This document shows positions 26,195-31,672 of a stretch of DNA of 45,926 bases, piece after piece. Position 1 is the stretch's first letter. The number at the start of each line of letters is the position of its first letter. Under the pieces are notes generated by a model. That model was not told where the DNA came from. It saw nothing but the letters and a program-made list of their open reading frames with translations, and made no database searches. Made by a program: the position numbers and the translations under genes. This DNA is from a virus. Location: UHGV virus genome UHGV-0253013; one strand, given 5' to 3'.

Positions 26195-26659
26195 ATGATG
26201 TACTTTGTGTACATAGGCGCGATATGCGCCGCCAACTTTTCGGTATCCGTTTTCGGTCCGTGGGCAACTCCTATAAACGCTTTTGTTCTTATCGGTCTTG
26301 ATTTTGTGATAAGAGATAAGTTGCATGAAAGAATCGGTGTGCGAAAAATATTTATACTCATAGTTGTTGCGGGGGTAATAAGTTACGCCATTAACCCTGC
26401 AACGGGTAAGATTGCCTCTGCAAGTGTGGTGGCATTCGCATTTGCTGCGTTGGTAGACGCGATTGTGTACCAGTTGCTTATTAACCAAAAGTGGCTAGTA
26501 AAGTCTAACGTCAGTAACACAGCGGCATCCGCTGTTGATTCGTTTATTTTTCCTTTAATCGCCTTTGGGGCTTTCATGCCGCTTGTAGTTCTCGGGCAAT
26601 TCGCCGCTAAAGTTATCGGGGGCGCTACCTGGTCACTCCTGTTGAGGAAAGTTAAATGA
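26195..26659 (+). CDS. yhhQ: YhhQ-like membrane protein (7-deazaguanine precursor transporter family), short form
   Basis: Multi-TM protein; segments KSNVSNTAASAVDSFIFPLIAFG and ASVVAFAFAALVDAIVYQLL resemble remembered E. coli YhhQ motifs (no alignment run); adjacent to a DpdA-like gene. Confidence 0.55.
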   Translation: MMYFVYIGAICAANFSVSVFGPWATPINAFVLIGLDFVIRDKLHERIGVRKIFILIVVAGVISYAINPATGKIASASVVAFAFAALVDAIVYQLLINQKWLVKSNVSNTAASAVDSFIFPLIAFGAFMPLVVLGQFAAKVIGGATWSLLLRKVK

Positions 26660-27390
26660 CAGTACACTACCACGGCGGCCCTATTTGGGGTGGGGGTGAA
26701 CTTATAAAAGCGTTGTACAGAGGGGGAGGTGCTCTGGTGTCCTATGCGCGTCCAGACCAGATACGAAAGATAGCCGCCATGAGATGTAAATTAGTACTGG
26801 ATAACGGTGCTTTTTCAACGTGGAAGAAAGCCCCGGAAAACATAGACTGGAGTGCACACTGGGCAGGATATTATGATTTTGTTGGTGAGTGGTTCAGCCG
26901 TATTGAGTGGTTCATAATACCTGACGTTATCGAAGGTTCCGAGGAGGAAAACGACGCGTTAATAGAAACTGTGCCGGATTGGTTAATGCCCAAGGCTGTC
27001 CCGGTGTGGCATAGTGACGAGAGTATAAGAAGACTGATAAAACTATGCAGGAAGTTCCCTCGAGTTGCTATAGGCTGCTGCGGCCCACACAGGGCTATAC
27101 GTTCTAAGTCGTGGGAAAAAAGAATGGATCAGGCGTTTAATGCGGTTTACAGAAACCGGAAACTAGATGTAAAACTACACGGACTTAGAATGCTGGATGG
27201 AAGGGCGTTAAGCCGCTACCCTTTTGATAGCGCAGACAGCACAAACGTAGCTATAAATGTACCAAAAACGAAGGCAAGACTGCCTAACATAACCGATAAA
27301 CTACACCGCACAGCTATAATGCGGCACACGATAGAAATGGTGAAACCACCCTCGGTTGGTGAATGGTTATTTAAAACTAAGGCCCCATAA
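26656..27390 (+). CDS. dpdA: DpdA-like transglycosylase (candidate 7-deazaguanine DNA-modifying enzyme)
   Basis: 244 aa, translationally coupled to the YhhQ-like gene. Call rests on a remembered resemblance to short phage DpdA/TGT-like proteins (YHGGPIWGG, LVLDNGAFS, FIIPDVIEGSEEEND) and on context. Confidence 0.5.
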   Translation: MTVHYHGGPIWGGGELIKALYRGGGALVSYARPDQIRKIAAMRCKLVLDNGAFSTWKKAPENIDWSAHWAGYYDFVGEWFSRIEWFIIPDVIEGSEEENDALIETVPDWLMPKAVPVWHSDESIRRLIKLCRKFPRVAIGCCGPHRAIRSKSWEKRMDQAFNAVYRNRKLDVKLHGLRMLDGRALSRYPFDSADSTNVAINVPKTKARLPNITDKLHRTAIMRHTIEMVKPPSVGEWLFKTKAP

Positions 27391-27406
27391 CGGGGCCTTT
27401 TTCTTT
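27379..27406. terminator. bidirectional terminator between the DpdA-like and portal genes
   Basis: AAGGCCCC-ATAA-CGGGGCCTT hairpin followed by TTTCTTT; both convergent stops lie in or beside it. Confidence 0.55.
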
Positions 27407-28874
27407 ACTCCTGCTGTTGTGCCGACTGCGGAATCTCCCCCTCAACCTGAGTAACAGCACCTAACGGCATCGGCGCGTCTTCGATAGCGTTCTGAATGTC
27501 CTCGTCAGTCCAGTCAATTACACCTGCCTTGCGCAACGCAGCATAATAAGCGGTCGCTGGCAGCAGACCGGCGTTAATATCTGCCATCCACTGAGCACGG
27601 TCCTGCGCTGTCATCGGTTGCAGGAAGAACTCCATATTCAGCTTGAACTCAATCTCTGTGTCTCCACGCAATCCTAGCATCGCCGCTACCCAGCGCAACG
27701 CATCAGTATACGCCATGCTTACGTTACGTGCGATTGTCGCCATAACGGATGTATCAGCACCGCGTTGCAGACGGGCTGATTCGGCGGTGATTTGCTGCGT
27801 CGGGGTGATAAGCTGAGCGCCAATCTGAATGGCCTGATTCTCTTTATCCAGCATGTTCTGTTTGGCGAGGTTATTTTCTCCCGCCTGAACCAGAAACGCA
27901 TTGCCGCCGTAGCCAATGTTATGGCCTGAGCGCGACCCCATGCGCACGCCGTGAGGGTTGGCTTCTTTCCACTGTTCCATGCTCATGTTCTCGCCGGGGG
28001 CTATGAACAGAGTGGGCTGGCCTACAACGAAGCTGGACTCCTCATTGTCTGCGCTGTTGCGGAAATGCCCAATATTAAGCTCAGCCAACGGCAGCAAAGG
28101 TGCATCGTCAATGGTTGCATCGTTGTTGCTTGCACCAATGAACGTGAACGGGATTTTGCCGCGTAACTGTTCGCCAAGTTCCGGGAATATTTCGATTACT
28201 TCACCCTGAGCGCAACCTTCAGCGTCGAAGCGGTAAATGCGCTGGCGGTAGCGCCCGTCAATCAAATCTAGAACGCGGTATTGCTCACCGAACTTTGTTT
28301 CGAACTCTGCACCCGGTTCTGAGTATTCCCATACCTCACGCAACACAACCATAGTCACGCGGTTAACTGAACCGACGCGAGTCAGTCGCCAGTTGATGAT
28401 GTTCTCTGCGGTATAGAATACGATGACCGGGTTTAATAATCCCGCGTTCTGTTCGGCTGCCGTTGCTGCGGCGGTCTCTGGCGCATCAACCAGCAATCCA
28501 CCACGACCAACCGAGTCAATCTCCATTAGCGTATCCTGCGCGTGCTGCCACAGCCCGACACCGGAACCGTCCGTATTGCGCAACAGGTATTCCAGTTCAG
28601 GAGGGATAATCTGTTCAGGGTCTTTGCGCATCACTGACCCCACCACCCCCGCCAGGGTACGTTTAGTGAAGTTGTAGCAGATAGCACCATTCTCGTATTC
28701 TTCCTGTCGCTGTGCTGCGTAGGTCGGGTCAGGCTCGTTCTTCCCGACGTTGCGCAGGTAGCGAATAAGGTCGCCCTCCAGCGAGTGGCGTACCTTCTGC
28801 CATTTATCGAAGTGGTGCAGCCATTCCCGGTGTTTTGTCTTAACACCCTGATTCTGACCGTTCATAGTTAACAT
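27405..28874 (-). CDS. portal protein
   Basis: 489 aa ORF on the structural strand directly after the terminase region; size and synteny. Confidence 0.65.
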   Translation of the reverse strand: MLTMNGQNQGVKTKHREWLHHFDKWQKVRHSLEGDLIRYLRNVGKNEPDPTYAAQRQEEYENGAICYNFTKRTLAGVVGSVMRKDPEQIIPPELEYLLRNTDGSGVGLWQHAQDTLMEIDSVGRGGLLVDAPETAAATAAEQNAGLLNPVIVFYTAENIINWRLTRVGSVNRVTMVVLREVWEYSEPGAEFETKFGEQYRVLDLIDGRYRQRIYRFDAEGCAQGEVIEIFPELGEQLRGKIPFTFIGASNNDATIDDAPLLPLAELNIGHFRNSADNEESSFVVGQPTLFIAPGENMSMEQWKEANPHGVRMGSRSGHNIGYGGNAFLVQAGENNLAKQNMLDKENQAIQIGAQLITPTQQITAESARLQRGADTSVMATIARNVSMAYTDALRWVAAMLGLRGDTEIEFKLNMEFFLQPMTAQDRAQWMADINAGLLPATAYYAALRKAGVIDWTDEDIQNAIEDAPMPLGAVTQVEGEIPQSAQQQE

Positions 28875-29029
28875 AGATATAGACCCTCGGGTATGGGTGT
28901 CAAAAGCCTAATAAAAATTAGGTTGCAAGTCACCAGAAACTCGCTACTGCGAGTTTTACTTGCACCGGGCTGGCGGTCAATATATCTTATCATTAAGCAG
29001 ATAAAAATGAATTGTTGGAGGGGATACGT

Positions 29030-30409
29030 ATGGGCAGAAGAATAACTGAAGAAGAAATCAAAAACCGGTTAGCTATGTTTGGGTTTAAATTGGTTGAATA
29101 TGGCGGGTCGCAAGTAGCAAAATCCGTTATAAAATGCCCCAATGGACACGAGGAATTGAAGTCGCTTAACACCTTCACGGCTAATGGTGTGCGCTGTAAA
29201 TCTTGCGCTGCTGCTGAAAGGAGTCTGGCGTACAGCACCGACGAGACCGAAGCGAGAAGGATAGTCGAGGACATGGGGTATTCGCTGATAAAATACGGCG
29301 GCAATTTGTACCGCAAAAAATCTACCGTCCAATGTGCAAACGGTCATGTGCGCGAAGTTCGCATAGGAAATATGGTTAAGGGTCATCGCTGCAAAAAGTG
29401 CGTGGCGGAAGCAATGTGTTTGGCGGAAGACGTGGTTAACACCAGACTACCAGATGGGGTCAAGATGGATTTTTACTGCGGCAACACGCGGGGGCTTAGT
29501 CTATTTTCTTGCGAAAAAGGGCACTCGTGGTCCGCATCCGTGAATAACGTAGTGTCTCAACAAACGAAATGTCCTAAATGCTCTAATAACGTAAGTGGTA
29601 TGGAAAAAGAAGTTCTGTCGTTTATCCGCGGAGTATACCCAGGTGTTGTCAATACGTCCGTACGGTCGCTTATCTCGCCGTTTGAGCTGGACATAGTATT
29701 GCCGGAGATTAAGGTGGCCATAGAATTTAACGGCATCTATTGGCATTCCGAGGCGAATGGTAAACACCGTAACTACCACATAAATAAGAGATTAGCGTGT
29801 GAGAAACTTGGGTACAGGCTGATAAGCGTACGAAGCGACCTTTGGTTAGAGAAGCGAGAGCATGTTGAGCGCATTTTGAAGAACGCGGTAGGGGTACGTA
29901 CTGTGTCTATTTTTGCCAGAAAATGTCGTGTGGTAGAGATAGCCAACAAAGACGCATTCCAGTTCTGTGAGGACAATCACATCCAGGGTGGGACAAAGGC
30001 TACAAAAGCGTATGCATTACTTCACGCTGGTGAGGTGGTTGCGGTAATGACTTTGGTACATTGGCGCCGCAAGGACTCATGGGAACTGGTGCGATATTGC
30101 ACCAGTACGTCCGTGCCCGGTGGCCTAAGTAAGCTGTGGAAACATGTGACGCAAGAAAACAACATTAAGCAAGCGTTCACTTATACCGACCGTGACCTTT
30201 TCACCGGTGCATCTTACGCAGAAGCTGGGTTTATATTTGATAGCTGCTCCGTAGGGTTTCGCGTTGTCGTAGGAACTCGTACAGAATCCCGCCAGAAATG
30301 GGGCAAAGCTCCCGAGGGTCTTACCCAAACAGAGTGGTACGAACGAGAAAAAGTGTCGCGCATATGGGATAGCGGTCAGGATAAGTGGGAATGGGTTAAA
30401 GGGGCATAA
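29030..30409 (+). CDS. putative homing endonuclease: three Zn-ribbon-like repeats plus DUF559/Vsr-like nuclease domain
   Basis: ATG at 29030 after GGAGGGG. Repeats CPNGHEELKS...CKSC, CANGHVREV...CKKC, CEKGHSWS...CPKC; then ELDIVLPEIKVAIEFNGIYWHSE; opposite strand between portal and terminase. Confidence 0.5.
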   Translation: MGRRITEEEIKNRLAMFGFKLVEYGGSQVAKSVIKCPNGHEELKSLNTFTANGVRCKSCAAAERSLAYSTDETEARRIVEDMGYSLIKYGGNLYRKKSTVQCANGHVREVRIGNMVKGHRCKKCVAEAMCLAEDVVNTRLPDGVKMDFYCGNTRGLSLFSCEKGHSWSASVNNVVSQQTKCPKCSNNVSGMEKEVLSFIRGVYPGVVNTSVRSLISPFELDIVLPEIKVAIEFNGIYWHSEANGKHRNYHINKRLACEKLGYRLISVRSDLWLEKREHVERILKNAVGVRTVSIFARKCRVVEIANKDAFQFCEDNHIQGGTKATKAYALLHAGEVVAVMTLVHWRRKDSWELVRYCTSTSVPGGLSKLWKHVTQENNIKQAFTYTDRDLFTGASYAEAGFIFDSCSVGFRVVVGTRTESRQKWGKAPEGLTQTEWYEREKVSRIWDSGQDKWEWVKGA

Positions 30410-30420
30410 GCCCCTTTTTA
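30399..30420. terminator. bidirectional terminator
   Basis: AAAGGGGC-ATAA-GCCCCTTT hairpin then TTTACTT; between the rightward gene stop (30409) and the large terminase stop (30422). Confidence 0.55.
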
Positions 30421-30421
30421 C

Positions 30422-31672
30422 TTAAAGTGCGAAAGTCACCGGGATGTTGATTACTGGTTTAACCACCGGCATCTCGTAAACTACAGGATAGCCGAGAGCA
30501 TCCGCCATATGGTCAATGATGCCATCTTTAGCGGGCTCCCCGTTATCGTCGTATGCCTGCTGCTCCAGCGTCTTGGCTATCTCAGGACATAAGTGGTCGT
30601 TAACCCACAGCTTACCTTTTTCCAGCGCGGTATTCACTGCTAAAACACGGTCTTTAACCGGGGGGTTGGCGGATTTAGCGCGAACATCGAACCCGGCCTG
30701 CTGGAGTAAGGCGATGTCAGAGATTGACGCCGAGTTGGTTTTGCGGTTCTTGCCGCTGGCGTCCGGGTAAACGACGATGCGGTGGCCTTGCGACTTCCAC
30801 TTCTCAGTAATTACGCGCACGGTATCCGGCGTATCGAACAAGCCTTTCAGTTCTGCTACCGCGTGCCAGCCGTCTTTACGCTGCACATACACAGCGCTGG
30901 CGTTCTTCGTAACGTTGAAGTCCTGCCCGATGTACAGTGTGTCGCCTGGCTGGATTGTCTCTTTGCTGCGGTGCTTGTGGCGGTCGTAGGCGTAATACAC
31001 GCTGCCGGAGGTCAGGTTGACGAACTCACCGTTAAGGTACGCGTTAATCAGTTGCGCCGGGTAAGTCTCAGTCAGCGAGCTAATGTAATCCGGCGGCAGG
31101 AATCGCGCGTTCTCGTGTGTGGAGGCCTGCACCATCGAGTAACTCGGTGTCGGGTTCTCTTTGAACTTGGCGTAGACGAACTTGAACCCTTCAGGTGTCG
31201 TGGTGACGGAGATGTGGTTGGTTACTCCGGGGATAACCAGACGCATACGGGCGACGATTTTGTTCCATGCCAGTTCAGCTTTTTCTCGGCTCAGTACGTC
31301 CAGTTCATCCACGACCGCGGCGGCGATTTTGAAACCCACAATCGAACCGGGGTTATCCATAGAACGACAGATAACCGTTCCGAGCACCGTCTTACCGCGA
31401 GTAACCACGACCTCTTTGTCTCCGGATTTAACCAGCACATCGAGGCCGAGGAGGTTAGCCGCCTCTTCGAATGTCGGGTAGAAGATGTCGCGGATAGCTG
31501 GGTATGTCGGGCCGAAGTAGCCGAGGCGCGTACCGGGGTGCTTGAGCATAAACGTAAGCAGGTCCAGACAGCCGACAAATGTCTTGCCGCTGCCGAAACC
31601 GCCGACATAGGCTTTGTATTTGTTATCGCAATTCAGAAACAATGCCTGAGGGGCCGATAGCTGAATACTCAT
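30422..31672 (-). CDS. terminase large subunit
   Basis: Walker A GGFGSGKT near the N-terminus, 416 aa, directly downstream of the small-subunit gene. Confidence 0.8.
   Translation of the reverse strand: MSIQLSAPQALFLNCDNKYKAYVGGFGSGKTFVGCLDLLTFMLKHPGTRLGYFGPTYPAIRDIFYPTFEEAANLLGLDVLVKSGDKEVVVTRGKTVLGTVICRSMDNPGSIVGFKIAAAVVDELDVLSREKAELAWNKIVARMRLVIPGVTNHISVTTTPEGFKFVYAKFKENPTPSYSMVQASTHENARFLPPDYISSLTETYPAQLINAYLNGEFVNLTSGSVYYAYDRHKHRSKETIQPGDTLYIGQDFNVTKNASAVYVQRKDGWHAVAELKGLFDTPDTVRVITEKWKSQGHRIVVYPDASGKNRKTNSASISDIALLQQAGFDVRAKSANPPVKDRVLAVNTALEKGKLWVNDHLCPEIAKTLEQQAYDDNGEPAKDGIIDHMADALGYPVVYEMPVVKPVINIPVTFAL

Follow-up and report, generated by a model that had tools for sequence, protein, structure and literature searches.

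What is a protein of 459 amino acids (aa) with zinc (Zn) ribbons, a nuclease core and a further C-terminal domain doing between the portal and large terminase genes of a siphophage? The question is raised by UHGV virus genome UHGV-0253013, a Kagunavirus/Jerseyvirus-like siphophage of the Guernseyvirinae; the whole stretch of DNA analysed (45,926 nt) is referred to here as the window. The gene concerned is an intact open reading frame (ORF) on the + strand (29030..30409; 459 aa plus stop codon), recognized as a hef-like homing endonuclease coding sequence by PHROG and tblastn matches. A preliminary description, made from the sequence alone, had suggested a homing endonuclease of unusual domain composition. 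We consider, with a probability of roughly 0.78, that this is a free-standing Hef-type homing endonuclease gene, belonging to a clade of the Vsr-like 'EDxHD' nucleases and carried in a cassette of 1.55 kb that provides both a ribosome-binding site and a terminator for it.

Comparison with relatives lacking the insert, which had been proposed as a check, defines the limits of the element. In Kagunavirus phages without a homing endonuclease gene (HEG), such as fBC-Eco01, the empty junction reads ...CATAGTTAACAT-TGAATAATCCTC-TTAAAGTGCG..., the central element being a 12-bp spacer between terL and the portal gene that is found in 27 of 30 empty sites; junction alignment shows that in the window this spacer is replaced by a cassette of 1,547 bp (28875..30421). 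The cassette directly abuts the stop codon of terL on one side and the start codon of the portal gene on the other, its own gene lying on the opposite strand. To its left is the portal gene (DUF4055/phrog_145; 27405..28874, - strand) and to its right the large terminase gene terL (Terminase_6N/6C; 30422..31672, - strand), both assigned by profile matches, with the small terminase gene beyond the latter. The left end of the cassette, AGATATAGACCCTC (28875..28888, - strand), supplies the GAGGG Shine–Dalgarno sequence of the portal gene and has the appearance of a spacer copy that has diverged. At the right end, RNA folding predicts a terminator-like hairpin (30398..30419, + strand; -16.2 kcal/mol, z = -2.9) whose 8-bp stem encloses a loop containing the stop codon and is followed by U5. 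A second hairpin, with a 9-bp stem followed by UUUU, lies upstream of the hef start (28936..28957, + strand; fold of 28935-28985, -19.2 kcal/mol, z = -4.7) and could shield the gene against readthrough or antisense transcription.

The distribution of the cassette is sporadic. In a collection of 50,697 records, only five, representing three distinct phages, contain cassette DNA, as against 257 that match the flanks, and the 70 IMG/VR loci surrounding portal homologs did not include a single copy. Between the window and Salmonella phage Jersey, the cassette is 92.6 % identical, while identity is 77 % for the portal gene and 86 % for terL/terS; because the cassette is more similar than its flanks, we take this lateral-transfer signature to mean that the cassette has moved between lineages. 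Approximately 100 bp on either side of the junction (at the portal end, about 85 bp) are 95–99 % conserved. It might be supposed that a nuclease gene adjoining terL encodes a domesticated packaging accessory cooperating with terminase in the manner of the HK97 HNH protein, and HNH nucleases beside terminase can indeed assist cos cleavage (PMC10448857). However, about 98 % of close relatives with the same terminase and portal genes do without the gene, which is oppositely oriented and has a terminator of its own, and its paralogs occupy other slots. A packaging role is therefore scarcely credible and, with nearly all relatives lacking the gene, was rejected.

Translation could begin at TTG 29012 or at ATG 29030. 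Only the ATG has a comparable Shine–Dalgarno sequence (GGAGG; 29017..29021, + strand, read from the sequence and situated 8 nt before it), nothing of the kind preceding the TTG, and we therefore take the ATG as the start and 459 aa as the length of the product, which is equal to that of annotated orthologs. No second copy was found in the window with hidden Markov models (HMMs) of the nuclease and GNAT domains and a regular expression for the Zn module, applied to all six frames. HEGs often degenerate once fixed, and this one could in principle be a relic that has begun to decay or lost its activity and mobility, surviving by chance. Yet all four carriers preserve the complete 459-aa reading frame, dN/dS in three diverged comparisons is 0.08–0.16 for the whole gene and 0.07–0.18 for the individual domains, all family-invariant catalytic residues are present in the window protein, and the cassette is rare rather than fixed. 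These substitution ratios indicate that all domains are under purifying selection and that the gene is functional, and we regard a relic as very unlikely.

With regard to family membership, profile searches matched the whole protein to PHROG 559 (E 5.9e-106) and aa 174–456 to PHROG 3339, 'homing endonuclease' (E 6.9e-73); the product thus falls among homing endonucleases and not in a well-characterized non-nuclease family, an assignment that would have spoken against the preliminary description. A tblastn search with the 459-aa protein matched 488 phage records. Escherichia phage vB_VIPECOMC04 carries the same gene (98 % aa identity), labelled 'homing endonuclease', and in Salmonella phages Jersey and demigod the ortholog is labelled 'putative Hef-like homing endonuclease'. 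Weaker matches labelled Hef, Hef-like or homing endonuclease were obtained in Campylobacter, Dickeya, Acinetobacter, Proteus, Bacillus and jumbo phages, annotated Hef or Hef-like genes giving E values of 1e-21 to 7e-25; multiple copies are frequent among these phages, with 11–13 matching places per genome in the Campylobacter phages. A search with the core alone (aa 186–459) returned 2,846 cluster representatives at E<=1e-30, a number that rises to 14,941 when the threshold is relaxed to E<=1e-10 and to 19,708 at E<=1e-3, and the nuclease plus C-terminal core almost always forms the last 270 residues of proteins of 450–700 aa. Because the core is so abundant, the architecture is common, and the part of the preliminary description that called the domain combination unusual and unrecognized does not stand, although its suggestion of a homing endonuclease does: the Hef-like family to which the gene belongs is known, abundant and already annotated, and in Jersey this very site has been annotated. 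Two other resources contributed little, NCBIfam giving no match for the 459-aa protein and the PADLOC defence-system models a single weak one (PDLC03678 'HEase', E 8.2e-4, aa 217–271).

The gene hef ('homing endonuclease-like function') of the T4-related phage U5 is described as lying in the nrdA–nrdB slot, and its product is reported to cleave nrdB (PMC2988022, citing Sandegren et al., 2005); 'bacteriophage Hef type homing endonucleases' are placed in the Vsr-like 'EDxHD' family by Taylor et al. (PMC3239194). The U5 Hef, the F-LimIII/VII/VIII/X proteins of phage LIMEstone and the Hef of Campylobacter phages share the nuclease and GNAT-like core with the window protein. Their genes likewise stand alone next to essential, conserved ones, and a single genome often contains many of them. 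Homology to Hef across the core was established by the PHROG matches and with the protein that occupies the hef slot of Escherichia phage LH2 (a Tequatrovirus), a 522-aa homolog between nrdA and nrdB (BLASTP E 6e-27). The two lineages differ at the N terminus, which in the T-even Hef-core protein is unrelated to the three CapR/DUF4379 Zn ribbons of the window protein, and in their setting, the nrdA–nrdB slot in T-even phages as against the terL–portal slot in a siphovirus of the Guernseyvirinae. The LH2 product (L005:2209-3777) is recorded as a 'hypothetical protein' and, as a Hef-core homolog with an unrelated N terminus, is under-annotated; nrdB of the same phage is split around another 'homing endonuclease' gene.

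The nuclease domain, of the Vsr-like (EDxHD) type, comprises aa 189–291 (29594..29902, + strand) and includes ELDIVLPEIKVAIEFNGIYWHSE at aa 219–241. Segment-wise profile searches and structure prediction had both been suggested as checks, and for this domain they agree. A family profile matched that of I-Bth0305I (PDB 3r3p) with E values of 1.7e-7 to 2.9e-7. An AlphaFold model of aa 185–293 (predicted local distance difference test score, pLDDT, 87) retrieved 3r3p first when compared with the PDB using Foldseek (E 1.2e-4; template modelling (TM) scores 0.63/0.69; root mean square deviation 3.1 Å), followed by Escherichia coli Vsr (TMq 0.70–0.74). Among 76 homologs, Pfam matches in this region were to MTES_1575 in 43, Vsr in four and DUF559 in two. 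The Vsr/DUF559-type core derived from the PD-(D/E)xK fold, as originally proposed, is well founded. The key residues of the domain are S189, E192, E219, D221, E232, N234, H239, H250 and K253; these, together with G235, are invariant or nearly so across 122 homologs. The EDxHD active-site residues of I-Bth0305I are E170, D196, N208, H213 and D222. N234, H239 and K253 align with I-Bth0305I N208, H213 and K225, and a common ELD/IEx(N)G..WH pattern suggests that D221 is the equivalent of D196; D221 and E192 lie at the expected EDxHD spacing, in a part that the reported 3r3p alignment excluded.

I-Bth0305I, the EDxHD prototype, is thus the best match to the nuclease domain in both sequence and structure, but it is intron-encoded, carries NUMOD and helix-turn-helix DNA-binding elements and lacks a GNAT domain, and its D222 corresponds to the invariant H250 of the clade considered here. 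E. coli Vsr (1vsr/1cw0) has the same nuclease fold, yet is a non-mobile, mismatch-specific repair nickase that has intercalating Trp residues and contains an intrinsic Zn site. The Hef clade is effectively 'EDxHH', the H250 codon occupying window positions 29777-29779.

N-terminal to the nuclease, the three tandem Zn-ribbon modules noted previously are clearly present. The C-x-[NK]-G-H...C-x2-C motif occurs at aa 36–59 (CPNGH...CKSC), 102–124 (CANGH...CKKC) and 161–184 (CEKGH...CPKC), and 20,000 shuffles of the protein did not yield even one such module. The corresponding units of about 60 aa are mutually alignable, each consisting of a helix, a β-hairpin and a Zn knuckle. Module 1 (aa 6–60; 29045..29209, + strand; ligands C36, H40, C56 and C59) falls within a PHROG 681 match over aa 8–125. 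Module 2 (aa 71–125; 29240..29404, + strand; C102, H106, C121 and C124) matched the CapR homology domain weakly, falling just short of the gathering score, and module 3 (aa 131–186; 29420..29587, + strand; C161, H165, C181 and C184) matched the Pfam DUF4379 treble-clef family above it (E 2.7e-7; 31.1 bits, cut-off 24.5). In the 76 homologs, DUF4379 was matched in 60, CapR in 27 and DUF723 in 22. The number of modules varies from about one to five across homologs, while the core is constant.

A triple DUF4379/CapR array is also fused to a T5orf172/MUG113 nuclease in gp095 of the T5-like Salmonella phage SP3 (L082:1501-2361), where it was detected by tblastn with aa 1–185 and by Pfam. Like the hef-like gene, this T5orf172 (GIY-YIG-like) endonuclease gene is free-standing, in this case beside nrdD, but its product has a different catalytic domain and lacks a GNAT domain. 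Since the same triple array is joined to a different nuclease, the comparison argues that it is a portable targeting module shuffled between homing-endonuclease families, and we infer that it is the sequence-specific DNA-binding part of the window protein. A literature search on CapR together with zinc ribbon and phage retrieved nothing.

The C-terminal stretch of about 170 aa, in which the preliminary description could place no motif, measures 168 aa (aa 292–459; 29903..30406, + strand) and can now be assigned to the Mom-family GNAT fold. In the full-length model (mean pLDDT 93), Foldseek matched this domain to GNAT acetyltransferases of the PDB, with phage Mu Mom (8bv8) ranking fourth and fifth (8bv8_A, E 1.3e-5). 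Alignment of the C-terminal family with 112 Mom orthologs by hhalign gave a probability of 92.9 % (E 3.6e-7, 128 columns). The window protein does not match Pfam PF25680 ('Mom protein family') at E<0.1, but 18 of the 76 homologs do so at E<=1e-3 (best 8.7e-11), with scores above the gathering cut-off of 27.1 bits in P0034 (33.6), P0043 (33.5) and P0045 (28.0). Mom, a Gly-tRNA-dependent adenine N6-carbamoylmethyl transferase, resembles the domain described here in that its GNAT fold has an insertion between the last strands; it is, however, a stand-alone 241-aa dimer and not fused to a nuclease, and the β4–α3 loop of the window domain is shorter than that of Mom and resembles the canonical GNAT motif V-x-G-G-x-S-K-L.

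Residues reported to be essential or important in Mom are H58, Y59, R111, S124, D149, R151 and Y159, with W48 for the dimer and W181 (PMC13219725). The key residues of the window domain are H317, R355, G364, S367, D387 and Y396. Mom H58, R111, D149 and Y159 align with H317, R355, D387 and Y396, of which H317, R355 and Y396 are each found in 122/122 homologs and D387 in 117/122. S124 corresponds to S367 in one alignment and is shifted in the other, the position being S or T in 98/122 homologs. Y59 is not conserved, being replaced here by I, V or L; R151 is D389 in the window protein, with R388 adjacent, and is R in 42/122 homologs; W48 and W181 are also not conserved in the window protein. Sequence and model together therefore identify a Mom-family GNAT domain with a largely preserved pocket, though not demonstrably a momylase, and homolog comparison indicates that this domain is a constant partner of the nuclease throughout the Hef clade. 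As the Mom-type pocket is invariant, the domain must do something independent of the target sequence. Its role could be catalysis, adenine binding or flipping, or an obligatory partnership or dimerization with the nuclease; most likely it takes part in DNA engagement, binding or flipping adenine and/or dimerizing for a double-strand cut, and true acyl or aminoacyl transfer to DNA is conceivable. With the chemistry of Mom and its essential residues now known, and four of these invariant or nearly so in the Hef core, the role of the domain is directly testable. Among the papers searched, none joins 'Hef-like' and 'Mom', and in the homing-endonuclease literature consulted, reviews included, Hef is treated as an EDxHD-class nuclease and a GNAT domain or second enzymatic fold in it is unmentioned.

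How such a protein might bring about homing can be pictured by analogy. In the DNA of cassette-less relatives, the three Zn-ribbon modules would recognize a specific sequence within or close to the conserved terL–portal junction, and the Vsr-like domain would cut there, with D221 serving Mg2+ and H239 acting as general base, as in Vsr and I-Bth0305I. During co-infection, recombinational repair against cassette-bearing genomes would then copy the cassette in. The portal and large terminase genes are the probable homing target region. Phage HEGs are known to cluster beside terminase and other essential genes (PMC10448857), and the features of the hef-like cassette fit this pattern.

Four observations weigh against this reading. 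Firstly, a promoter scan for the hef-like gene gave two sites as against 2.5 expected by chance; the scan also overlooked the terminator that direct RNA folding revealed. Secondly, D222, the fifth EDxHD residue of I-Bth0305I, aligns with H250, which is His in 122/122 homologs. Thirdly, within 300 bp on either side of the cassette, no substitution is common to the four carriers yet absent from 22 close non-carriers, the spacer being the sole consistent allelic difference between carriers and non-carriers. A target spanning the spacer would be destroyed by the insertion; otherwise, the target stays intact in carriers and must be protected in some other way. If the target lies wholly in the flank rather than across the spacer, self-immunity is unexplained. 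Finally, a conserved GNAT domain with a Mom-like pocket is unexpected in a plain homing endonuclease, and has been read otherwise by Iyer et al. (2021; PMC7824862).

That other reading is of a single-chain, restriction-modification-like conflict system (a 'Mom-REase fusion'), in which the GNAT domain modifies the phage's own adenines and the nuclease attacks unmodified host or competitor DNA. It was proposed for jumbo-phage fusions (PMC7824862, section 3.4.7), five of which were counted in phage PA5oct, and a PA5oct 'putative homing endonuclease' matches our Hef-like model (E 3.7e-28); the homing-endonuclease and Mom-REase literatures seem to describe one and the same family. The Mom-family assignment of the C-terminal domain, the conservation of its pocket residues, the purifying selection acting on it and the carrier flanks without protective substitutions, which make another form of self-protection conceivable, all accord with this proposal. 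On the other hand, many diverged copies with differing N-terminal arrays, as in the Campylobacter phages, fit homing genes, as does precise insertion adjoining conserved essential genes; Hef itself is reported as a homing enzyme (PMC2988022); four of the residues important in Mom (Y59, R151, W48 and W181) are not conserved in the window protein; and the one PADLOC match, to 'HEase', is weak. A restriction-modification-like system, which would be partly compatible with homing, is accordingly unlikely.

It is tempting to speculate on a bifunctional element, in which the conserved Mom-like GNAT domain either catalyses acyl or aminoacyl transfer to DNA adenine or serves as a reader that flips this base; directed by the Zn ribbons to the element's own target, it would mark or protect the carrier genome. 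We consider this possible but doubtful. If true, it would constitute a homing system in which one polypeptide cuts the rival and modifies its own genome, it would explain the unaltered flanks of carrier genomes, and it would reconcile 'Hef homing endonuclease' with the 'Mom-REase restriction-modification' literature. We nevertheless favour homing as the primary biology of the Hef-type gene: such genes multiply within genomes, their targeting arrays vary, they insert precisely and beside essential genes, and homing has been reported for Hef. The gene itself is ordinary, belonging to a very large family of selfish phage nucleases; the conceptual by-product of the analysis is a Mom-like domain inside a homing endonuclease.

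The use of these positions by other genes is also informative. Paralogs with 60 % and 44 % aa identity lie in the slot between the MuF-like head gene and the portal gene of related siphophage contigs (L006:4001-5374 and L009:4001-5350), from which it follows that members of the family occupy the slots on either side of the portal gene. In more distant relatives, the terL–portal slot contains an HNH_3 gene unrelated to the hef-like gene (L006, 7010-7675) or a 208-aa opposite-strand HNH ORF (L063 and L069). The opposite-strand slot to which the preliminary description drew attention is therefore borne out as a site occupied by other nuclease genes, and different nuclease families have invaded it independently. 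The cassette marks terL–portal and MuF–portal as hot spots of recombination and insertion in the Guernseyvirinae. A 278-bp terL–portal spacer in one IMG/VR relative (L010, 4223-4500) was considered as a possible cassette remnant and rejected, as it contains an unrelated small, sense-strand, membrane-like ORF.

In the window itself, the MuF–portal slot (26195-27390, + strand) holds two opposite-strand cargo genes, one encoding a VUT/YhhQ-like transporter (154 aa, Pfam Vut_1) and the other a DpdA-like 'queuine tRNA-ribosyltransferase' (244 aa, PHROG 887, E 9.5e-84). This DpdA/VUT cargo is shared with one of the 70 IMG/VR relatives, L010, which is the closest relative there to carry it. The predicted DpdA-like function may indicate 7-deazaguanine DNA modification in the window phage. 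In the phage collection, the best match to the cargo is Pectobacterium phage PEAT2 (67 % identical, with the DpdA and VUT pair present), followed by HK106 and Salmonella phage 7-11.

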